Shown piece by piece: positions 627 through 45,877 of a DNA stretch of 64,000 nt. The notes beneath the pieces are model-generated. The model did not search any database, was not told the origin of the DNA, and saw only the letters and a program-made list of their open reading frames with translations. Position 1 is the stretch's first letter. Every line of letters begins with the position of its first letter. The stretch is from an uncultured Anaerolineales bacterium (GTDB lineage: Bacteria > Chloroflexota > Anaerolineae > UBA7937 > JACPPX01), in the NCBI GenBank assembly GCA_964348195.1, contig CAYGBX010000007.1:4802-68801 (forward strand). Reading direction: 5' to 3'. The position numbers were made by a program, and so were the translations under genes.

Positions 627-1094
627 ATGACCACAGCACAATCGATTCTGGGCATTCTTGCAGCACTGGCAGTGACCTTTGGGACGGCGTTCGTTGGATC
701 CCGCTTTCCTGTGGATGAGTGGTACGCGGAGCTAGCCAAACCAGCGTGGAACCCGCCCAACTGGATCTTCGGTCCGGTTTGGACGTTGCTCTACCTGCTC
801 ATGGCCCTCGCGGCGTGGCTAGTCTGGCGAGAGCACGGCCTTTCTGGAGCCACTCTGCCGCTGGGAGTCTTCGTCTTGCAGCTCATTCTGAACGCGGGAT
901 GGTCATGGATCTTTTTTGGACGGCATGAGATAGGCCTGGCCCTGGTCGAGATCCTGATTCTCTGGGCCGCCATTCTCTGGACGATCATTGGGTTCTGGCG
1001 GTTGAATCCATTGAGTGGGGGGCTTATGGTGCCGTACCTCCTGTGGGTGACCTTTGCGGCGGCCCTGAATGCTGCAATCTGGCGGCTCAACTGA
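627..1094 (+). CDS. tspO: TspO/MBR tryptophan-rich sensory protein
   Basis: Family hallmark motifs are present: WYAELAKPAWNPPNWIFGPVWTLLYLLMALAAWLVW and later Trp-rich TM helices. I chose the ATG at 627 (MTTAQSILG...) over the long ORF-track start. The gene ends in TGA at 1092-1094. Confidence 0.88.
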   Translation: MTTAQSILGILAALAVTFGTAFVGSRFPVDEWYAELAKPAWNPPNWIFGPVWTLLYLLMALAAWLVWREHGLSGATLPLGVFVLQLILNAGWSWIFFGRHEIGLALVEILILWAAILWTIIGFWRLNPLSGGLMVPYLLWVTFAAALNAAIWRLN

Positions 1095-1102
1095 GGAGGC
1101 GG

Positions 1103-1837
1103 ATGGCGATTACAGAAGATCCTGAAAACTACGAGACCCGCGTCTTGTCCGACCTGGTGGATTTCGCGGGAAAGCGGGTGCTGGAGATCGGCTGCGGAAC
1201 GGGTCGCCTGACCTGGCGCTACGCGGACAAGGCTGCGCACGTCATTGGAATCGATCCGATCGCCGAAGACATCGCGACGGCGAAGGAGAACCGACCGGAT
1301 CGTTTGCGCGACAGGGTCGAGTTCTTGGAAGCCACCATCGAGGGTTACGAACTGCCTGCGGGCGCGCCGAAGTTCGATGTAGCCCTGTTCGCGTGGTCTC
1401 TCTGATGAATCGACCCTGAGGGCATGGTTCATGCCCTGAAGAAAGCGCGTCGCCTGCTGTCATCCGGCGGCATCCTCGTCAACGTTCACGATATCGACGA
1501 TCCGGCGCGGGTGGAGGTTCATGACGGCGCCCGTGTCAGCGTGGCTGGCCGGGTAGTGGACCGATCAGATTTCGACGACGAACGTCAGGCGCTCGCGGCA
1601 GTGGCTCAGGTAGTGGAAGATGGCTTGTTCGTTATGGAAGAAGAGCGCCTCTTCGACCACAACCTTCACGCCGAATCGCTCGACGTCTTGCGCGAGTACA
1701 TCGCTGAGGAATGGGAAAACACGATCCTGCCAGGGGAGACTGCACAGAAGGCTGAGGAGCTCATGAGCCGCGCGGCCGACGACGCGGAGGTGATTGTTCG
1801 CTTCTCCGCTTGGATGGCACGGCTGAGGTCTGCCTGA
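1103..1837 (+). CDS. Class I SAM-dependent methyltransferase with tandem in-frame UGA-UGA (1403-1408), a candidate Sec-Sec selenoprotein (paralogue 1)
   Basis: ORFs 1043..1405 and 1424..1837 share one frame. Joined, they give a complete Rossmann MTase: motif I VLEIGCGTG, then IGID, then FDVALFAWSL-[TGA][TGA]-IDPEGMVHALKKARRLLSSGG. ATG 1103 follows the RBS GAGGAGG. It lies 9 nt after the tspO stop, suggesting an operon. Confidence 0.75.
1419..1437 (+). promoter_or_regulatory. SECIS-like hairpin downstream of the UGA-UGA in methyltransferase 1
   Basis: AGGGCAUG-GUU-CAUGCCCU forms an 8-bp stem with G/U in the apical loop. It starts 10 nt after the second UGA. The nucleotide sequence is identical to that in paralogue 2. 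Confidence 0.5.
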
Positions 1838-3379: not shown

Positions 3380-3832
3380 GTGGGAGTGAAGACGAAGGCA
3401 CCCAATCCCTCCTACCTCAATCTGTGCATACCGCTTTCGATCGCCATGCATCTTCTCTTCCCAATCCAGATGCTGATCCGTTCGCCGCTGCGATACGTGG
3501 GCATCCGGCTCATTCTCTTGGGGTTGGCGCTCAACCTCGCGGCGTCGGCCCGATTGCGCGACAGCCAAACGCCTGTCGATTTCCATAAGTCCCCCGTTCG
3601 CTTGGTGACGGATGGTCCTTTTCAGATGACCAGGAATCCGATCTATCTCGGAGGTGTGGCCGTTCTCCTTGGCATCGCCATGTTCCTTGGCTCGCTCGTG
3701 ACGCTTCTGTTTCCGGTCTTCGTGCTCGTGGTACTGGATCGGATCTACGTTCCGATCGAAGAGGGTGAGATGGAGGAGCGGTTTGGACACGACTATCTTG
3801 AATACAAGCAAGCCGTGAGAAGATGGATGTGA
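3380..3832 (+). CDS. Isoprenylcysteine carboxyl / phospholipid methyltransferase-family membrane protein
   Basis: The motif GPFQMTRNPIYLGGVAVLLG...EEGEMEERFGHDYLEYKQ matches the ICMT/PEMT C-terminal signature. The protein has multiple TM helices. The start is uncertain (GTG 3380 or ATG 3446). Confidence 0.75.
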   Translation: MGVKTKAPNPSYLNLCIPLSIAMHLLFPIQMLIRSPLRYVGIRLILLGLALNLAASARLRDSQTPVDFHKSPVRLVTDGPFQMTRNPIYLGGVAVLLGIAMFLGSLVTLLFPVFVLVVLDRIYVPIEEGEMEERFGHDYLEYKQAVRRWM

Positions 3833-3909: not shown

Positions 3910-4386
3910 GTGATGGAACGCGTCCTGCTGCGGGAGGTGGCGGAAAGTGACCTCCGGATATTCTTCGAGCAGCAACTGGATCCGGCCGCGAATCAGATGG
4001 CGGCTTTCACGGCCAAGGCCCCGGCGGACAGGGGGGCCTTCTCGGCACACTGGACCAAGATTCGGGAGGATGACAGCACTACCATAAGGACCATCCTCTT
4101 CGACGGGGCCGTGGCAGGTCACATTGCGAGCTTTGAACGGCTCGGCAAACCGGAAGTCACCTACTGGCTCGGGAGGGAGTACTGGGGCAAGGGCATCGCC
4201 ACCAAGGCGCTCTCGGAGTTCCTACGCCTCCTCAAAGTGCGCCCACTCTATGCCCGCGCTGCAAAAGACAATGTCGCCTCTGTCCGGGTCTTGGAGAAGT
4301 GTGGGTTCACGATTTCGGGCTGTGACAAGGGGTTTGCCAACGCTCGCGGGGAGGAGGTCGAGGAAGTCATCCTGGTATTGAGATAG
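3910..4386 (+). CDS. GNAT family N-acetyltransferase
   Basis: An acetyl-CoA binding-like motif is present (YWGKGIATKALSEFLR...). Size is about 158 aa. GTG 3910 or ATG 3913 are possible starts. Confidence 0.8.
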   Translation: MMERVLLREVAESDLRIFFEQQLDPAANQMAAFTAKAPADRGAFSAHWTKIREDDSTTIRTILFDGAVAGHIASFERLGKPEVTYWLGREYWGKGIATKALSEFLRLLKVRPLYARAAKDNVASVRVLEKCGFTISGCDKGFANARGEEVEEVILVLR

Positions 4387-4566
4387 GAAGTGAAGGATCA
4401 CTGGACGCAGGCGGCCGTGGACCCGCTCCTTGGAGCGCCAAGGCGACTGTTCCTGGGACAGGCAGAGGCGGCCTAGGCAGGCCCATCACACGTTGACTTG
4501 CGAAGCCGCTGGTGCTGCAATCATCGGGCAGCTCACTTGTCCTACCAAGCAGCTAGGAGGCACCGA

Positions 4567-5328
4567 ATGGCGATCAGAGAGGACCCTGAGAACAACGAAA
4601 CCCGCGCCTTGTTTGACCTGGCTGACTTCAGCGGAAAGGACGTGCTGGAGATCGGCTGTGGCGACGGCCGCATGACATGGCGGTTCGCCAACTGGGCGGA
4701 CCATGTCACGGCCATCGATCCCTATGAGGAAGGAATCAACCGGGCCAGAGAAGACCTCCCGGACGAGCTAGAGGGCCGGGTCGAGTTTCACCATATTGGC
4801 TTCGAAGACTTTGCCGCTGTCAGCCAGCCCTCAACCTTCGATATCGCCATCCTTTCCTGGTCTCTTTGATGAATGGAACACGAGGGCATGGTTCATGCCC
4901 TGGAGGAGATTCATCGCCTGCTCAGGCCCGGCGGATACCTGGTCGAGATTCATCCGTTCCCCGAAGGGTCGCTCCTCAAGGTCCTTAGAGATGGCGAGAT
5001 CCTCTTCGCCGAGCCCAGGCGGCTCTCTGAGGATGAGGACGTGCTGCACGCTGAAGAGGCTGTCGCGGAGGTAGTTGGGCGGCACCTGTTTGTCATCGAA
5101 GACACGGGAGAGTTCGACTTCTTCACCTACGCCTCATCGGTGCCTGAGCTCCGCGAGTTCAAGGAGGAGGCCAGCGCCTACGACGATTCCCCGAAGGACG
5201 AGGCGTTGGAGGCCCGGGAGGAAGAGCTGTACCGCCAGGCTGAGGAGATCATGCAGGCAACCGGGGAGGGAGCGGAAGTCGCCACTCATTCCAGGGCCTG
5301 GATCGGGCGACTCCGGCCGGTGAGGTGA
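4567..5328 (+). CDS. Class I SAM-dependent methyltransferase with tandem in-frame UGA-UGA (4867-4872), a candidate Sec-Sec selenoprotein (paralogue 2)
   Basis: ORFs 4498..4869 and 4873..5328 share one frame. Joined: VLEIGCGDG ... FDIAILSWSL-[TGA][TGA]-MEHEGMVHALEEIHRLLRPGG. ATG 4567 is preceded by AGGAGG. The protein is collinear with the 1103..1837 gene along its full length. Confidence 0.75.
4883..4901 (+). promoter_or_regulatory. SECIS-like hairpin downstream of the UGA-UGA in methyltransferase 2
   Basis: The same AGGGCAUG-GUU-CAUGCCCU hairpin starts 10 nt after the second UGA. The 21 nt GAGGGCATGGTTCATGCCCTG are identical in both paralogues, including all wobble positions. Confidence 0.5.
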
Positions 5329-5600
5329 AGCGTAGGGCGGAGAGCCTTCCCCGGGCTTTGAACCTGAGCTCGAGGCCTCACTGAACTACGCCATCACAGA
5401 AGTCCGGTGGTTCGACCTGCGCGATGAGGGTGGCTGGGACCCTGATCTGCTGAACGATCCCAGCACCTATCCCCAGCTGGTGGTTGCTAGGGAGAAGCTG
5501 GGCTACACCCCATGACTGCAGGGGTGGGTCCGGAGGGCTAGCCTGAGGCATCTGCCGGACGGGGCGCCGGAGAATTCGGAGGTAGAGGAGAGGGGCTGTC

Positions 5601-6248
5601 ATGTCGGTTCTCGAAAGGGTCGCGTTCTTCCAAGGTCGGCGCGACGAGGGTCCGAACAAGGAACTGGCCAAGGTGCTGGCAGATTCGCGGGATGAAGACG
5701 GGATCGCGGAGATCGCCCAAGGCTTGTGGCACGAAAACCAGCGGGTGCGGTCCGATTGCGTGAAGGTTGTCTACTAGATTGGCTACATCGAGCCGGAACT
5801 CATTGTCGCATTCGCGGAGGATTTCCTGAGGCTGTTGCGGAGCCGGAGCAACCGGCTGGTGTGGGGGGGGATGGCCGCGCTCGCCACCATCGCACCACTC
5901 CGAGGGGAGTACCTCTGTGGGCACTTCGAGGCGATCAAGTCCGCAATCGAGAGCGGCTCCGTTATCGCCCGCGACAGCGGCGTTAGAGTCGTGGCGGCCA
6001 TCGCCTCGAAGTCTGAAGAGTGTCGCGATCGAGCGTCTTCGTACCTGCTTCAGCATCTCTCCACCTGCAGGTCCAAGGACGTACCTCAGCACTCTGAGAG
6101 CGCGCTCCCCGCGGTATCGTCCGCCAACCGGGATGAGTTCCTCGCGGCGCTGGAGGCTCGCATGGCCGAATTGACCCCTCGCCAGGCGAAGCGCGTGGAG
6201 AAGGTGATGAGACAGGCTCACGAGATCTCCACCGATGGGAAGGAGTGA
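5601..6248 (+). pseudogene. HEAT/ARM-repeat protein interrupted by an in-frame amber codon (TAG 5775-5777)
   Basis: My translation from ATG 5601 gives MSVLERVAFFQGRRDEGPNKELAKVLADS...VKVVY-TAG-IGYIEPELIVAFAEDFLRLL... This continues in frame into ORF 5835..6248. The helical-repeat character resembles the next gene. Confidence 0.55.
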
Positions 6249-6408
6249 GGGGGTGCGCGGCGGCGTGGCATGACACGCCCTGCGCGTCGTCGAGCACACT
6301 AGGCCTCGGAGGCCCTGAGCTCCTCCCCCTGGCCGTCAGGATCCCTTCGCCCGTCCCGACTGGGCTGTGTGCATCTCGTGGTCCAGGTTCCGCCCTGCAA
6401 GGTGAGGT

Positions 6409-7164
6409 GTGAGTAAGATCGAGGAGTACCGGGCGATTCTGCAAGAGCTGAAGAATTGGGATCCATTCTTGCTGCAAGAGTCGAGGCTACCCGGGCCAAG
6501 AGCAAACCTGGAGCTCGCCTTTGCTGTGGCCTTGGATGGAGATGAAGCTCTCTTCCTGCGCTACGCAGACCTTGATGAGACAGAGGCGCCGGGGAATACG
6601 CAGCTGGAGTTCCTGGCCTTCTGCGGAGTGCTCGGGCTGGGCTATCTTGTAGCTCGAGGTCAGAGGGAACACCTCTCGGCTCTTCGTGAGAGGGCCTCAG
6701 ATTCACGGTGGCGAATTCGGGAAGCGGTTGCCTTGGGATTGCAGCGCTACGGCCAGGAGGATATGAGCGGGTTGGTCGGGGAGATGGAGTTCTGGGTCGA
6801 GGGGAATCCCCTCGAGCGGCGAGCCGCGGTAGCCGCACTGTGCGAGCCCGGTCTTCTGAGCGATCCTGAGTGGGCCCGGAAGGTCTTTGACATCCTGGAT
6901 CGGGTCACCGCCTCGGTCCGGGACGAAACGGATCGCAAGCGGGATAGCTTCAGGGTGTTGAGGAAGGCGCTTGGATACGGTTGGAGCGTGGCCGTTGCCG
7001 CCCAGCCTGACACCGGTAAAGACAGGATGGAGAAGTGGATTGGTGAAGAGGACCGGGATATTCGCTGGATCATCAAACAGAATCTGAAGAGAAAGCGGCT
7101 GACTCGGATGGACGAGGATTGGGTCGAGGCTCAATTGAAGGCAATAGGGCAGTCGAGAGCCTAG
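6409..7164 (+). CDS. HEAT-repeat protein, DNA alkylation repair (AlkD-like) family
   Basis: The 251-aa helical-repeat protein carries motifs typical of DNA-alkylation-repair HEAT proteins: DSRWRIREAVALGLQ, ...RRAAVAALCEP... and IRWIIKQNLKRKRL. Confidence 0.65.
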   Translation: MSKIEEYRAILQELKNWDPFLLQESRLPGPRANLELAFAVALDGDEALFLRYADLDETEAPGNTQLEFLAFCGVLGLGYLVARGQREHLSALRERASDSRWRIREAVALGLQRYGQEDMSGLVGEMEFWVEGNPLERRAAVAALCEPGLLSDPEWARKVFDILDRVTASVRDETDRKRDSFRVLRKALGYGWSVAVAAQPDTGKDRMEKWIGEEDRDIRWIIKQNLKRKRLTRMDEDWVEAQLKAIGQSRA

Positions 7165-14424: not shown

Positions 14425-16035
14425 GTGAAACCGTCCCTAGGTCGGAGGTTGGCCCTGGCTCTGGACGGGCTGCTCTTCCGATACAAGGTCGCCATCTTCG
14501 CTCTATTGGTGGGCTACTTCATCACGGCCCACTATTTGTTTCTGGGGTTCAACAGCTGGGATGGCGTCTCGTATCGGGTTCCTCCGATCGTGGAGTTGGT
14601 TCAGAACGGGAGCACTGGCGGCTGGAAGTTCGACTTCTACGCTACCCGGCACTTCTACCCCTTCCTCGAGCTGGTCCACTTTCCGTTCCTCAAGGTCCTC
14701 GGCATGACGGGCCTCTACTTCAGCTTCTCCCTCGTGCTGCTGCCTTTCTCCGTCGCAGCTGTGTATCTGTTCGTCCGCGACCTCACGGGCAACCTCAGTT
14801 GGGCGACATACTCCGCCCTCGCGTACTTGGCCATCCCGTTTGTCAACACACAGGCTTTCTCAGGCTATGTCGATTTCGCAGTTGTCGGTGCGCTTGCCTT
14901 CTATCTCTATGCCCTCCTCAAGGTGCTGCGCTTGGATGATCCACCGATGCGGCCGCTCGTGGTTCTCTCTATAGCGACGTTCGTCTTCAGCATGTCCCGC
15001 CAGCAGACTCCGTATGTGGCCCTTCTCATCCTGGGGGGTCTGGGCGCGTGGTTCCTGCGCCCCTGGAGCAGGTATCAGTCGTGGAAGGACGGGCGCTGGA
15101 GCCCACCGCGACACCTTGTCAAGATCTCCCTCTCCTTCGGCGCTGGAATCGCACCGGCGGTTCTCCAACACCTGTGGAGATTCCTGGCCTACGGGACTCC
15201 GATCTTCCCCTATCAGTTCAAGTTCTATCGCATCGCGACGGAGGTTGGCGCCATTCCTCACTACACATCTGGCCTGCTCGCTCCAGGCTGGGAGGGACTG
15301 CTGGCAAGCTTTCGAAGGGGCTGGGTGCTGCCGTTGCCCAATGAATGGCCGACGAACTTCTACGATAGCCGTTCCCTGGGGATCGGTCTCTTCTTCTGGT
15401 TGCTTTGGATCGCGCTTCCGTTCATCGACCGGTTCGTCAAGCGGGACACCGCAGTGATCATGGGCCTCTCTGTCGGGATCGCCCTGGTCAGCCAGGACTT
15501 CTGGTTGCCGCGGTGGTCCATGACACTGGTGCTTGTGACCGTCCTGATCATTGGCGGGGCGCTGTCGTGGTTGGCGACACGGGGTCCGCTGTGGGCTTAC
15601 TTCCCCCTTCTCCTGGCCGTTGGCCTCCACTTCGGCCGGCCGCTCTACGATGCCTACAGCATGATCGAGAAGCGCGAAGCGTACTTTCGCGTCGACCTCT
15701 CGCAGAGCCCTTTGTTCATTGGAAGCGAAGTGGCTCCGGGCGAGCTGACCCTCTACCCCGATATGGAGGCTGACCTCTTCTTGGTACATCCGGTGAACGA
15801 TGCGTTTTATCTCCTGCTATATGGGCGGAATCTGTCCAATCGGATCGTGGATGTGTTGGATCCGGCTGAGGCGGCCAGCTCGTGTGCAGTGCCCGACACC
15901 GCGAGACCCGATCGCCAGGTGCTGATCGTCGATCAGTTCGGAAAGCTGGCGGAGCCATCGGCCGGCTGCACCTGGACATGCGCCTATCCGGGCCCTGGAC
16001 GATGCCTGGCCGGGAGCCTCGTGAGGTCAGGATGA
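14425..16035 (+). CDS. Large polytopic membrane protein, possibly a GT-C-like glycosyltransferase
   Basis: The 536-aa protein has more than 10 hydrophobic segments over its first 400 aa. I see no specific catalytic motif. Confidence 0.55.
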   Translation: MKPSLGRRLALALDGLLFRYKVAIFALLVGYFITAHYLFLGFNSWDGVSYRVPPIVELVQNGSTGGWKFDFYATRHFYPFLELVHFPFLKVLGMTGLYFSFSLVLLPFSVAAVYLFVRDLTGNLSWATYSALAYLAIPFVNTQAFSGYVDFAVVGALAFYLYALLKVLRLDDPPMRPLVVLSIATFVFSMSRQQTPYVALLILGGLGAWFLRPWSRYQSWKDGRWSPPRHLVKISLSFGAGIAPAVLQHLWRFLAYGTPIFPYQFKFYRIATEVGAIPHYTSGLLAPGWEGLLASFRRGWVLPLPNEWPTNFYDSRSLGIGLFFWLLWIALPFIDRFVKRDTAVIMGLSVGIALVSQDFWLPRWSMTLVLVTVLIIGGALSWLATRGPLWAYFPLLLAVGLHFGRPLYDAYSMIEKREAYFRVDLSQSPLFIGSEVAPGELTLYPDMEADLFLVHPVNDAFYLLLYGRNLSNRIVDVLDPAEAASSCAVPDTARPDRQVLIVDQFGKLAEPSAGCTWTCAYPGPGRCLAGSLVRSG

Positions 16036-33040: not shown

Positions 33041-33272
33041 TGCTACCTCCTGTAGGTGTCTGATCCTCAGGTTAGCAAAGCAAAGGGCTGTCGGCCAGTC
33101 TGTAGTCTCCATACATTCGGTCGTGGACAGGCCACAGGCCGTCTGCTATACTGAGCCTGCTGAGATCATCTTCGAATCGCCAATCCATGTGAACTGAATA
33201 GGGGGTAGGCGGAAAGGGGCAACTGCCTGCCCTCGTATGTCCTCTAGCCCCGCTTCCAGGGAGGGAAGGAGA

Positions 33273-34703
33273 ATGAACAGACGCGTGCTGTGGCTGGGCG
33301 GACTTCTCGTTCTGCTCAGCTTTGCGCTCGCGGGCTGCGGAACGCCTGCACCGGAGATAGTCGAGGTGGAGGTCCCAGGTCCCGAGCGCGTCGTCGAGGT
33401 CCCGGTCGAAGTCCCGATGGAACCCATCGAGACCACACTGGTCGAGTTCTGGACGACCGACAACGAGGAAGACCGGGTCGACGTGTACGAGGCGATCGCG
33501 GAGCGATTCATGGTCGCCAACCCCGAGGTCGAGATCCGCATCGTCCCCATCGATGAGGCCACAATCTCGCAGCGGATCGCCACGGCCCAGGGCGCCAACC
33601 GCCTGCCTGACATCGTCCGCATGGGCATCGAGCGTGTGTCCGCGTTTGCGGCCGACGGGATCCTTGACGAGGACGCCGCTGAGGCAGTGATCGCCAGCGT
33701 CGGCAGGGACGACTTCCGCGCCGGGCCTCTGGCAATGGTCACGAACCCGTCGACAGGGAAATACTCGGCTGTGCCCTTTGACGGCTGGATCCAGGCCATC
33801 TGGTATCGAGCCGATGTCTTCGACGACGCCGGGCTCGATCCGCCGGTGACGTGGGCCGACATCACGGCCGCCAGTGAGGCGCTTCCCGGCACCGGCAACC
33901 TGCTGTACGGCCTGACGCTTGGCACGGATCCTGGTCAGAACTACCCGCATCAGGTCTTCGAGCAGGTCGCAATGTCCAACAACGCCTGGCCGTTCGACGC
34001 TGACGGCAACGTGACGATGGACACGCCGGAGATGATCGCGGCCTTGGACTTCTACACCAGCCTCCAGGACTTCGCACTTCCTGGCCCGCAGTACTGGCGC
34101 GGCGCCCGCGAGGCCTATGAGCTGGATCAGGCCGGTATGCTCTTCTACAGCACCTACATCATGGACGACCTCGTAGAGGGCTCTGGACTGGAGGGCGGCG
34201 GCCAGGTCGAGATCCCAGTGGAGGACCTGGCGCTCAAGACCGGGTTCGCCTCTGAGATGGTCGGCCCCAACGGTTCTGCCTCCTACGGCCAGTTGGTCAC
34301 CCTCGGCATTATGGACGGCGCCGACCCGGTGGCGCAGAACGTGGTCGAGTTCTTCCTGACCGGCGAGAACTACCTGGACGTGCTGGCACTGGCTCCCTTC
34401 GGCAAGGTACCGGTCCTCGAGAGCGCGGTCGAGGGGTGGAGCACATTGAGCCCCTTCTTCGAGTTCTACTCTGACGCGACCATGGCTCAGATCGCGGGTG
34501 GCTACGAGTCCATGCAGCGCTGGCTCTTCCGACCCGGCTACGACGCCACGCAGCGCGCGGTCATCGGCGACATCGAGGGTACACTCCTGATTCCGCAGGT
34601 TATCAGCGCCATCGCTCTGGAGGGGACCATGACGCCGACATCCGGCGCGGCTTTCCTCCAGGAGCAGGTGGAGCAGCTGCTTGCCGATCGACTGGCGGGG
34701 TAG
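33273..34703 (+). CDS. Sugar ABC transporter substrate-binding lipoprotein (family 1)
   Basis: ATG 33273 follows GGAAGGAG. A lipobox (ALAGCG) is present and the protein is SBP_bac_1-like. Confidence 0.85.
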   Translation: MNRRVLWLGGLLVLLSFALAGCGTPAPEIVEVEVPGPERVVEVPVEVPMEPIETTLVEFWTTDNEEDRVDVYEAIAERFMVANPEVEIRIVPIDEATISQRIATAQGANRLPDIVRMGIERVSAFAADGILDEDAAEAVIASVGRDDFRAGPLAMVTNPSTGKYSAVPFDGWIQAIWYRADVFDDAGLDPPVTWADITAASEALPGTGNLLYGLTLGTDPGQNYPHQVFEQVAMSNNAWPFDADGNVTMDTPEMIAALDFYTSLQDFALPGPQYWRGAREAYELDQAGMLFYSTYIMDDLVEGSGLEGGGQVEIPVEDLALKTGFASEMVGPNGSASYGQLVTLGIMDGADPVAQNVVEFFLTGENYLDVLALAPFGKVPVLESAVEGWSTLSPFFEFYSDATMAQIAGGYESMQRWLFRPGYDATQRAVIGDIEGTLLIPQVISAIALEGTMTPTSGAAFLQEQVEQLLADRLAG

Positions 34704-34836
34704 CTCGATATCGTAGCGGAATGGGTGGGGACCCGGCCGGAAGGCTGGGTCCCCCCTTCTTTGACTGAGTTGCGGCCGAGCCGGGTGGCCGTGGTTCCGC
34801 CCGCAGCTGTATGGTGAAAGACGCACGGGCGGTGGG

Positions 34837-35799
34837 ATGGCTGTAGTCACCGAATCGCGCAGGCAGCTGTTGCTGCGGCGCTGGAACGCGCTTGATGCGC
34901 GGGAGTCCCGGCTGGCGTGGGCCCTCGTCCTGCCGACGGCGCTGATCGTCTTCGGGCTGGTCGCTTTCCCTGCGATCTTCAGCGTGTGGATCAGCTTTCA
35001 CGACGTGGGACTGCACAACCTGAACGACGTGTTCAACGCGCCGTTCGTGGGACTGGACAACTATCGATCTGTCTTCGACAACTTTGCCTTCAAGTTCCAG
35101 GGGCTACAGAGCTGGGGAGCTGCCGTCACGAGCGTAGTCTTCTCGTTCAGCACCACGCTCCTGGCGCTGGTGTTCGGGTTGGCGGCGGCGATTCTGCTCA
35201 ACCGGCCCTTCAGGGGACGCGGGCTGACGCGAGCCATCTTCCTGTTCCCTTACGTAGCTCCCATCGTCAGTGTTGCCTTCGTGTGGCGGTGGATCCTGGA
35301 TCCGAGACCGTCTGGAGTCGTGAACGATATTCTCATGAACCTGGGCGTCATCGAGCTGCCCATGGCCTATCTGGCGACCCGAGGCCTGGCTCTGATCCTG
35401 GTGATTCTCCTGGATGCCTGGCGGTACTTCCCCTTTGCGATGCTGATGATTCTGGCGCGGCTTCAGGCCATCGACGAGTCCCTGTACGAAGCGGCAGAAG
35501 TGGATGGGGCGGGGGCGGTGGCCAAGTTCCGCCATGTGACCCTGCCCGAACTCCGCTACGTTCTTGGCGCGATATTCCTCCTCCGCCTCATGTGGACCTT
35601 CAACAAGTTCGACGACATCTTCCTGCTGACGGGAGGCGGGTTCGGCACCAACGTGTTGCCCGTTTTGACCTATCAGTTCAGCTTCAGGCTGTTCGATTTT
35701 GGCCGGGGTGCTGCCACGGCCATGATCTTGCTGGTCATCCTGGTGATCTTCATGGCGTTGTACATCGTGTTTGTGATGCGGCGGACCGAGGAGACCTAG
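34837..35799 (+). CDS. Carbohydrate ABC transporter permease (MalF-like)
   Basis: 6 TM helices and an EAA motif region (EAAEVDGAGAVAKFRHVTLP) are present. Confidence 0.87.
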   Translation: MAVVTESRRQLLLRRWNALDARESRLAWALVLPTALIVFGLVAFPAIFSVWISFHDVGLHNLNDVFNAPFVGLDNYRSVFDNFAFKFQGLQSWGAAVTSVVFSFSTTLLALVFGLAAAILLNRPFRGRGLTRAIFLFPYVAPIVSVAFVWRWILDPRPSGVVNDILMNLGVIELPMAYLATRGLALILVILLDAWRYFPFAMLMILARLQAIDESLYEAAEVDGAGAVAKFRHVTLPELRYVLGAIFLLRLMWTFNKFDDIFLLTGGGFGTNVLPVLTYQFSFRLFDFGRGAATAMILLVILVIFMALYIVFVMRRTEET

Positions 35800-44185: not shown

Positions 44186-45877
44186 GTGAATGATAATACC
44201 GGACCCCGGTGGATGCCGATCGGCCTGAGTCTGGCCCTGGCCGGCCTCACCATTGCTCTCGCCGCTCGAGAGCCGGTCGCTCGCGCAGTGGAAGGCAATG
44301 CCTCGCTGCAGCCACCGGGGACCACTACGGTCACCCCGACGCCCCCCTCGACGGCCACCGCCACGCCGACTCCGACCAATACGTCAACCCCCTCCCCGGT
44401 TTGCCAAGGAGACGAGACCATGTCCTTTGATCCAGCCGCGTCGCTGGTGGGGGATCCCTTCGTCATCCTGGTCTCCTCGGCCAAGCCTCACGTGAACGTG
44501 CGGTTGGATGGGCCGTTCTCTCCCGCCTACCTCGACGCTCGGCCTGGAGGTCTGGGGTTCGTCTGGCGGTGGGAGGCCATCGCAGGTGCCCCCGGGACAG
44601 CAGCCTATGACTTCTACGCTCAGGAGACTGAACTTTGCACTTCCGGATCGGTGGCTATCTCCGCCGCCCCGACTCCGACCGCTACCGAGACGCTAACTCC
44701 ATCCCCCAGCCCTTCACTGGGACCGCCCACCGCGACAGATGTTCCCCCCACGGACACTCCGTCGCCGTCTCCCACCAGAACGCCAACGCGGACGACGACG
44801 CCCGTGGTTCTCGCTCCCCTTCTCACCCCTTTGCCAGCGACCACCCCTGTGGCGCCCGTTGCCGGAGGGGACCTGAGCACCACCCTCGGATGGGTCCTCG
44901 TGACAGTGGGCGGCCTCTTGGCCGCCGGGGGGATCGGAGCGTTTGTCCTGCTCCTGACCAGAAGGCCTCAAGAGCAGGTCTCGGAGCCGAGGTGCCGCTG
45001 TGATGTCAAGCTGGCGGGAATCGAGGTCACTCCCGTTGACGTCTTCGGCGACGTTGTCTGCAAGCCGATCTATGAGCGGGAACCCTCTTGCGAAGGAAAG
45101 TGCAAAGACGGCCGGTCGTGTCGTATGGACGTCACCTATCGCTGGTCCTTCAGCGATGAGACGTCAGACGAGGTGAGGCCCGGAGGCATCCCCCGAGGCT
45201 CAATGGATCGGGAGTGGCTTCACCTGGATACTCCTCCGGGATCGACGGTGGGAGTGCATCTGGACGTGACGGTTGAGTGCTACTGCCGAAGGTTCCTGCG
45301 GCGGACCGGCGAGAGCAGCCCGTGCTATGACAGCGCCTCACGGACTTTCAAGACCACCATGCCCTGCCAGTGCAAGCCCAAGGCAAGCGAGAAGGAACCG
45401 AAGCTGACGCTGCAGAGCAGTCATGCTCTGGAGGATGGGTGGGTGCTCCGCATGACCTGGAAGCTGGAGAACCCTCCGGAGCTTGAGTGCGAGGGATCGT
45501 GCGGTGAGAGCGAGGAGCCCTGCAAACTCAAGATGGATTGCATATGGATCGGGGACCACAAGGCGCTGACGTTTCCGGGCAGGTACGATTGGTGCGATGC
45601 GATCACCGTCCATGTGGACGGTCGCCAGGTCCGAAGCCGCTGGTTCAACCGCCCCACCGACCCGGCGGACATCCCCTACGTCCTGGATTTGGAGATCGAA
45701 GCCCGCTGTCAGTGCGAAGGCTCAGCCGTGGACGAGGTGGAACTGTTCGAGTTCTGCCGGTGGGCGGGGGCCTTCCACTGCAAGGGAGACAAGTTCCAGA
45801 GGTTTGAGCGGCACCCCCTGCGAATGGCGCCGATTGGGCGGCTCCATGCTCAGGGCGTCACGTCGATCCGAGGTTGA
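44186..45877 (+). CDS. Hypothetical single-pass membrane protein with Pro/Thr-rich linkers and a duplicated Cys-rich C-terminal domain
   Basis: It has an N-terminal hydrophobic segment, PT-rich low-complexity linkers, a central TM (LGWVLVTVGGLLAAGGIGAFVLLL followed by TRRPQEQ), and then about 290 aa containing about 20 Cys. Confidence 0.6.
   Translation: MNDNTGPRWMPIGLSLALAGLTIALAAREPVARAVEGNASLQPPGTTTVTPTPPSTATATPTPTNTSTPSPVCQGDETMSFDPAASLVGDPFVILVSSAKPHVNVRLDGPFSPAYLDARPGGLGFVWRWEAIAGAPGTAAYDFYAQETELCTSGSVAISAAPTPTATETLTPSPSPSLGPPTATDVPPTDTPSPSPTRTPTRTTTPVVLAPLLTPLPATTPVAPVAGGDLSTTLGWVLVTVGGLLAAGGIGAFVLLLTRRPQEQVSEPRCRCDVKLAGIEVTPVDVFGDVVCKPIYEREPSCEGKCKDGRSCRMDVTYRWSFSDETSDEVRPGGIPRGSMDREWLHLDTPPGSTVGVHLDVTVECYCRRFLRRTGESSPCYDSASRTFKTTMPCQCKPKASEKEPKLTLQSSHALEDGWVLRMTWKLENPPELECEGSCGESEEPCKLKMDCIWIGDHKALTFPGRYDWCDAITVHVDGRQVRSRWFNRPTDPADIPYVLDLEIEARCQCEGSAVDEVELFEFCRWAGAFHCKGDKFQRFERHPLRMAPIGRLHAQGVTSIRG

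Follow-up and report, generated by a model that had tools for sequence, protein, structure and literature searches.

Tandem in-frame UGA codons with a conserved SECIS-like hairpin downstream in a family of putative methyltransferase-fold selenoproteins

The stretch of DNA analysed here (the window, 64,000 nt from an uncultured Anaerolineales bacterium) contains a methyltransferase-like gene whose reading frame is interrupted by two consecutive TGA codons, and this raises the question whether two polypeptides, a defective gene, or a single protein with two adjacent selenocysteine (Sec) residues are encoded at this locus. The recoding of UGA as Sec with the help of a SECIS element is well known, and nearly all prokaryotic selenoproteins contain one Sec. 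Tandem stop codons are, on the other hand, also a normal fail-safe terminator.

The gene in question (gene A, positions 1103 to 1837, plus strand) is a candidate for a selenoprotein with the fold of class I SAM-dependent methyltransferases. Its frame extends from the ATG at 1103 to the TGA at 1835-1837, and the TGA TGA at 1403-1408 (plus strand) is the sole interruption, located between the residues FDVALFAWSL and IDPEGMVHALKK. If both UGA codons are decoded, the product comprises 244 residues (100 aa, U, U and 142 aa) with the proposed Sec-Sec at residues 101-102. A Shine-Dalgarno sequence, GGAGG (1095-1099, plus strand), is located 3 nt before the ATG and directly after the stop codon of tspO (1092-1094). 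Downstream of the tandem UGA, at 1419-1437 (plus strand), there is a SECIS-like hairpin with the 8-bp stem AGGGCAUG/CAUGCCCU and the loop GUU. The stem begins 10 nt after the second UGA and 13 nt after the first one, and the loop 18 nt and 21 nt after them, respectively. The original prediction, which was based on the sequence alone, had described one frame broken only by TGA TGA and an 8-bp hairpin with a GUU loop 10 nt further on, and every element of this description is present. It had also held that TGA is an ordinary stop codon here and that a global code change is unlikely. This held as well, since TGA ends 15 of the 29 long ORFs of the window, including tspO, the PFK gene and the ThrRS gene.

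An independent assembly of the source organism (L001; GCA_012974945.1, contig JABAOD010047478.1) likewise contains TGATGA at this site. When compared to positions 500-1900 of the window, this assembly contains an extra nucleotide at two places, namely within a G run of tspO and, in the form of an A, within the N-terminal half of the methyltransferase gene, and because of these insertions the gene caller fused TspO and the methyltransferase in L001.

The original prediction overlooked a second gene of this kind. Gene B (4567-5328, plus strand, with the ATG at 4567 and the TGA ending at 5328) is a paralogue which is 45% identical to gene A, while the identity between gene A and its homologues outside the window is 37-48%. 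Gene B is preceded by AGGAGG 7 nt before its ATG and would encode 253 residues if decoded; in the ORF list it appears as two ORFs in the same frame (4498-4869 and 4873-5328). Its tandem UGA UGA (4867-4872, plus strand) is at the position homologous to the pair in gene A, in the context ILSWSL-U-U-MEHEGMVHAL, and is followed by a SECIS-like hairpin (4883-4901, plus strand) with the stem, GUU loop and 10-nt spacing found in gene A. The hairpin of gene A corresponds to the minimum free energy structure (-13.2 kcal/mol, z = -2.4), and that of gene B has -14.5 kcal/mol (z = -2.9). The two genes share an identical 15-nt hairpin core, a count which was reached in none of 100 shuffles. Since TGA TGA is common to two diverged paralogues, a sequencing error or a recent pseudogene can practically be ruled out.

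When one genome of each GTDB species was scanned, at least 188 related loci could be confirmed, of which 80 were kept. They belong to Chloroflexota (59 loci, among them Anaerolineae, Thermoflexales, Promineifilaceae, Dehalococcoidia and Ktedonobacterales), Actinomycetota (16), Armatimonadota (1), an unclassified genome (1) and three others, which we take to be Acidobacteriota. Together with genes A and B this resulted in 82 genes in which the two columns of the pair were read as DNA. The pair is TGA-TGA (UU) in 53 genes, TGY-TGA (Cys-U) in 21, TGA-TGY (U-Cys) in five, TGY-TGY (Cys-Cys) in two and TGA-TAA in one; the TGY-TGA form is found in 12 of the 16 actinomycetotal loci. Thus the alignment of homologues, which had been proposed as a check of the original prediction, revealed Cys-Cys, Cys-U and U-Cys exactly at both columns. 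In-frame stops at the pair are TGA in 133 cases, TAA in one and TAG in none, while the true ends of the same genes are TGA (33), TAA (23) or TAG (21), i.e. TAA or TAG in 57%. Neither further in-frame stops nor length variation at the site of the pair were found in the 82 genes. The pairwise identity of the 77 full-length genes among them ranges from 22 to 100% with a median of 37%, and parsimony on a neighbour-joining tree requires no fewer than 5 and 6 exchanges between Sec and Cys at the two sites.

The only TGA TAA member (L015, 3001-3663) originates from the Chloroflexia MAG MFD02416.bin.1.275 and has an intact hairpin and an intact remaining ORF; its TAA could be a base-call error or the mark of a very recent pseudogene. 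TGG was found at the pair columns neither in the 82 genes read as DNA nor in other full-length representatives. A sole protein with 'WW' at this place (P0041; L086, 73-810, Logan SRR23008603) is a gene-caller artefact, because the DNA there is TGA TGA, in which TGA was read as Trp. Searches for Trp read-through could be led astray by entries of this kind.

At the protein level, database searches yielded full-length metagenomic relatives (length 245-254 aa, identity 36-44%) in which 'WSLCC' falls precisely on the pair columns, and also fragments which stop at 'WSL' or 'WSLC'. In an exhaustive profile search over 1.84 billion cluster representatives only the best 150 matches were classified: 28 are full-length CC proteins, 50 comprise only the N-terminal part and stop immediately ahead of the pair, 14 break off after a single Cys, and 34 contain only the C-terminal part. 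More distant full-length representatives have ordinary 'SLHH' or 'SLHE' where the family has CC or UU, which suggests that a pair of His residues in the acceptor pocket has given way to the chalcogen pair. One further homologue (L085, 411-1028; JGI 3300086399) was called at 205 aa and has CGC TGC ('RC') at the pair with a fully kept hairpin. An IS110-type transposase gene is located approximately 1 kb away, and by its appearance this may be a decaying or recently converted copy.

The covariation analysis of the hairpin was based on 76 different sequences with TGA, in which the helix of eight pairs is paired to 95.9%, and changes on both sides are found in six of the eight pairs; none of 500 shuffles reached any of five hairpin measures, and slid controls were paired to only 20-59%. 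Examples of compensatory changes are GGC..GCC to AGC..GCU or CGC..GCG, and AUG..CAU to GUC..GAC. In the first case the exchange of Gly for Ser (GGC to AGC) is accompanied by a synonymous change in an Ala codon (GCC to GCU), and elsewhere Met..His (AUG..CAU) is swapped jointly for Val..Asp (GUC..GAC), Ala..Arg or Thr..Arg. Such compensation does not respect the protein code, so that the RNA largely dictates the conserved peptide G-M-V-H-A. The covariance test, also suggested with the original prediction, was therefore positive, with six of eight pairs covarying and the helix kept in all TGA forms. The energy of the canonical helix is between -7.4 and -13.9 kcal/mol in all 80 of the 80 TGA-containing genes. 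Among the six TGA-less homologues read as DNA, the hairpin is gone in four, which are Cys-Cys genes with values of -1.3, -0.9, +3.7 and +7.1 kcal/mol, and the peptide G-M-V-H-A is missing from most full-length CC proteins. Only L083 (CC) and L085 (CGC-TGC) still have the hairpin without TGA, and by their appearance both could be recent conversions. A lower helix, in which codons just past the pair would pair with 'AUCCAU', was considered too, but with 67% pairing and little covariation it is not claimed.

The properties of this hairpin agree with those of known bacterial SECIS elements. According to the published model, the loop has 3-9 nt, the stem 4-16 bp and the distance from UGA to loop is 16-37 nt, and the loop starts with G followed by G or U, the G being within the first two positions (PMC13188914). 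In the family the loop is GUN with an invariant G and U in at least 90%, the stem has 7-8 bp, and the loop starts 18 and 21 nt from the two UGAs, so that this model is fulfilled in loop, stem and spacing. The minimal SECIS of E. coli is located 11 nt from the UGA (PMC8659212), a distance which is bracketed by the 13 and 10 nt between the two codons and the stem. As the distance of the hairpin is unchanged in the U-Cys and Cys-U variants, each of the two codon positions appears to be served by this hairpin individually. Altogether, the comparison of the 82 genes shows that the pair columns contain Sec or Cys codons, with TAA as the one exception, and that they are followed by a covarying hairpin at a fixed distance.

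The protein would be one domain. With Cys put at the stops, Pfam Methyltransf_25, 11, 12 and 31 match residues 26-126 of gene A above thresholds, and this match therefore spans both stops; the scores of the two window proteins with Pfam class I methyltransferase models are 60.3 and 63.2 bits at a cut-off of 27, and motif I, 'VLEIGCGxG', is invariant in the family alignment. An AlphaFold2 model of the CC homologue P0003 (pLDDT 89, pTM 0.86) is a single contiguous class I Rossmann-type methyltransferase domain in which beta-4 (91-97) is followed by CC (101-102), a helix (105-118) and beta-5 (119-130), and then by two beta-hairpins and the last two long strands. According to this model, a cut at the pair would split the central beta-sheet. 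The originally predicted contiguous class I methyltransferase was supported by both the model and the Pfam match across the stops. The loop after beta-4 usually lines the methyl-acceptor pocket in class I methyltransferases.

A search with this model using Foldseek yielded only generic small-molecule methyltransferases with TM values of 0.45-0.6; the nearest solved structures are 3m33, 3mgg, TleD, MtfA, CcbJ and BioC, and all fold matches are class I methyltransferases. Sequence matches in the PDB are generic too; in the nearest of them, the counterparts of the pair within the loop behind beta-4 are 'HL', 'CL', 'HL' and 'MY', and ordinary relatives have 'HH', 'HL' or 'MY' at this position. Family membership was tested against the curated cut-offs of NCBIfam release 20.0, and no model of this release captures the window proteins. 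For ArsM (NF008823 and its selenoprotein subtypes) they reach 24-28 bits at cut-offs of 263-575, for MduS (NF045649) 24.5 bits with gene A and 38.7 bits with gene B at a cut-off of 380, and for CpaM (NF043040) 68 bits, in the N-terminal half only, at a cut-off of 180; none of these assignments is met. There were also no ArsM structures among the 50 best fold matches of the P0003 model. The idea of an ArsM-like enzyme with a metalloid substrate, put forward in the original prediction, is supported neither by membership scores nor by fold neighbours and remains speculation.

Based on these data we consider it very probable that genes A and B encode selenoproteins in which both adjacent UGA codons are recoded as Sec by means of one SECIS of the SelB type, although the Sec machinery has to be assumed and evidence at the protein level is lacking. 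This reading relies on the accepted computational criteria for selenoproteins, namely Sec/Cys pairs, TGA-containing orthologues and a bSECIS, which are met here. The corresponding claim of the original prediction, that both UGAs are Sec in the loop after beta-4, was supported by every comparative test run, selenium insertion itself being inferred. With the same reservation, the genes very probably belong to a widespread family of proteins of about 245 residues with the class I SAM-dependent methyltransferase fold and a Sec/Cys pair after beta-4.

Mechanistically, SelB-GTP-Sec-tRNA(Sec) would bind the hairpin through the G-U of the apical loop and bring Sec to the first UGA. One translocation on, the same hairpin would serve the second delivery at the next UGA; relative to the codon to be decoded, its start would be 13 nt downstream in the first step and 10 nt downstream in the second. 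This would result in a single uninterrupted methyltransferase in which two selenols are next to each other. Both the repeated delivery by SelB from one hairpin and the chemistry of the pair are inferred and not shown. The bolder formulation, that a single bacterial SECIS programmes two consecutive SelB-dependent insertions and thereby gives rise to a vicinal Sec-Sec (diselenol or diselenide) next to the SAM site, is in our opinion likely, but less firmly founded than the assignment to selenoproteins as such. Back-to-back Sec deliveries from one hairpin were not reported in the literature searched. Because of this missing precedent and the 11-nt spacing in E. coli, the yield of the Sec-Sec protein may be low and the truncated product of 100 residues may dominate. 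As for the role of the pair, by analogy with vicinal Cys-Sec selenoproteins we tentatively prefer a redox-active or soft-ligand site (for metal, metalloid or chalcogen). This role is inferred only, and any metal or metalloid substrate is no more than a possibility.

The most obvious alternative is a split gene, in which the tandem stop is a fail-safe terminator, a second polypeptide starts at an ATG immediately behind this stop or at one inside the hairpin, and the two halves assemble non-covalently. It is in line with this that gene callers split nearly all records here and that many members have an ATG directly after the pair or within 'GMVHAL', a point which, like the TGA TAA of L015, has to be counted against our preferred reading. 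However, the stops of the pair are TGA in 133 of 134 cases, though the same genes end with TAA or TAG in 57%, and Cys codons are found at the pair in homologues, with the frame preserved and no indels. CC forms, too, have M, I, V, L or F directly behind the pair, so that hydrophobicity, and not a start codon, is what this site reflects; in L036 none of the first 12 codons read downstream of the pair is ATG, GTG or TTG. As noted originally, where the downstream ATG was held to have no usable ribosome binding site, GAGGG is located only 1 nt before the hairpin ATG in the window genes, and this motif is missing in many homologues. Finally, the cut would fall inside the central beta-sheet of the P0003 model. 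Thus we regard a split gene as very unlikely. Equally improbable is the insertion of a standard amino acid (e.g. Trp or Cys) at the UGAs, be it by read-through or recoding with a near-cognate or suppressor tRNA or by a changed code of the lineage, with stimulation by the hairpin. Such stimulation is possible in principle, and one database protein has 'WW' at the pair; however, as outlined above, this is an artefact, there is no TGG at the pair in the 82 genes, and TGA is a regular stop codon in the window. Two near-cognate events in succession would moreover be very inefficient, and the G-U of the loop agrees with the consensus of the SelB type.

It can also be imagined that only one UGA is decoded as Sec while the other is skipped by a hop or slippage, resulting in a protein shorter by one residue. 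The repeated UGAUGA could let a tRNA re-pair, and no experiment excludes skipping. On the other hand, the Cys-containing homologues all keep two residues without length variation, and from the CU and UC forms it is evident that neither position is left empty, so that this possibility also appears very remote. A pseudogene or an error of sequencing or assembly is all but excluded: indel errors exist elsewhere in L001, and L015 has TGA TAA, but paralogues of 45% identity, a second, independent assembly and a further 51 species-level genomes all contain TGA TGA, and both halves of the gene are otherwise open and conserved.

The genomic neighbourhood offers little guidance. The tspO gene (627-1094, plus strand; TspO/MBR family, PF03073, 165 bits) is located 8 nt upstream of gene A, and the two are likely to be co-transcribed in the window, as originally proposed. 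This arrangement is only local: no TspO gene was found near the methyltransferase family in any of the 80 related loci, so that it is not a conserved partner, and all-against-all clustering of the flanking ORFs revealed no conserved neighbour. Between genes A and B there are genes for a PEMT/ICMT-type membrane methyltransferase and a GNAT acetyltransferase (3380-3832 and 3910-4386), and weak homologues of the PEMT-like ORF are near the family in two of the 80 loci (L024 and L018). Adenylate-cyclase-type regulators with an adenylate/guanylate-cyclase domain were observed near the family in about 10 of the loci L002-L081. In L083 and L084, cyclase domain proteins with AAA_16, TPR or GerE domains are encoded close to the methyltransferase gene, and the database fragments P0021 and P0025 start with cyclase-like sequence. 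Other annotated genes in the window are housekeeping genes (PPDK, ThrRS, SHMT, GlmU). No Pfam match (at 1e-4 or 1e-5) was obtained for the ORFs at 14-418, 5538-6299, 6409-7164, 14425-16035, 33072-34850 and 44186-45877, and some of the long ones may be spurious antisense ORFs in this sequence with 63% GC. At this GC content a GC3-filtered scan for in-frame TGA was too noisy for the detection of other selenoprotein genes in the window.

A search for the Sec machinery had also been suggested originally, and in the window and the related loci, which are not the whole genome, nothing was found. ARAGORN detected no tRNA-Sec in the 64-kb window and 60 loci, nor did Rfam in the window, and motif scans over 529 kb (the window and about 465 kb of related loci) detected no SelD, SelA or SelB-type GTPase. 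The absence of tRNA-Sec, selA, selB and selD from these sequences counts against our interpretation insofar as the machinery has to be assumed, but it is uninformative on the genome as such, because the remaining genome lies outside the scope of the search. Sec-decoding organisms are known from the Chloroflexi, Actinobacteria and Acidobacteria (PMC1794560).

What is probably new here is not SECIS-dependent recoding, which is ordinary in itself, but the family and the presence of two adjacent Sec codons served by one hairpin. Table 1 of a review from May 2026 lists 119 prokaryotic selenoprotein families, most of them with one Sec and a few with 2-3 (PMC13188914), and the motifs in this catalogue include UxxU, UxxxxU and CU (PMC13188914). 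Neither an adjacent UU motif nor a methyltransferase of such a type is among the 119 families (PMC13188914). In the literature searched, nothing relevant on tandem or consecutive UGA or on adjacent or vicinal Sec was found, though a prior mention cannot be fully excluded. To our knowledge, the Sec-Sec dipeptide proposed for the family of genes A and B would be the first one in a bacterial protein.

If our interpretation is true, it is important for several reasons. It bears on the strictness of the spacing between UGA and SECIS and on the action of SelB in two successive elongation cycles, and it would provide a natural vicinal diselenide or diselenol at the active site of an enzyme. The UU, CU, UC and CC variants with a fixed hairpin represent a ready-made natural experiment. 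Further, a family distributed over at least three phyla would be annotated everywhere as two unrelated small ORFs; this is a systematic annotation error, by which its members are stored as fragments of about 100 and 150 residues or as 'WW' proteins. Last but not least, through this family Anaerolineae-type Chloroflexota and uncultured Actinomycetota, both abundant in soil, sediment and sludge, gain additional putative selenoproteins.

Among the known systems, the selenoprotein forms of ArsM (NF008823; ArsM/DUF2284, NF041536; ArsM/AhpD, NF041537) resemble the new family in having the class I SAM fold and Sec in place of a Cys of the substrate site, and double and triple selenoproteins of the ArsM type were curated by NCBI (PMC13188914). 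They differ in that their listed motif is UxxG, further Sec residues are located in other domains, and adjacent Sec codons are not present. MduS (NF045649) also has a Methyltransf_25-type domain and two Sec residues, but it comprises 338 residues with the motif CxxU, and since genes A and B are far below its cut-off, it is a different family. Among the NCBIfam models, the N-terminal 127 residues match best with CpaM, a corrinoid protein-associated methyltransferase (NF043040; 68 bits), but the likeness is confined to the generic SAM-binding half.

At the level of the motif, adjacent chalcogen pairs are known from the vicinal Cys-Sec ('CU') selenoproteins SaoL (MerB-like), HgcA, SaoC, MbdU and KCU-star, several families of which are tied to organometallic or metal chemistry (PMC13188914, Table 1). 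A further vicinal Cys-Sec pair is present in the C-terminal GCUG of mammalian thioredoxin reductase. The exact CU or UC dipeptide is found in 26 of the 82 family genes. However, the CU selenoproteins have one Sec per pair, while the methyltransferase family has mostly Sec-Sec, in an unrelated fold. Two close UGA codons in one bacterial gene exist in the UxxU selenoproteins (Prx-like, FmdB family and metal-binding NF041115), but there they are 9 nt apart and not adjacent. Finally, several UGAs per mRNA are decoded in eukaryotic selenoprotein P and archaeal VhuD (PMC13188914; PMC4989117). In these cases the SECIS is located in the 3' UTR and acts at a distance, whereas the bacterial SECIS is immediately downstream with a defined spacing.
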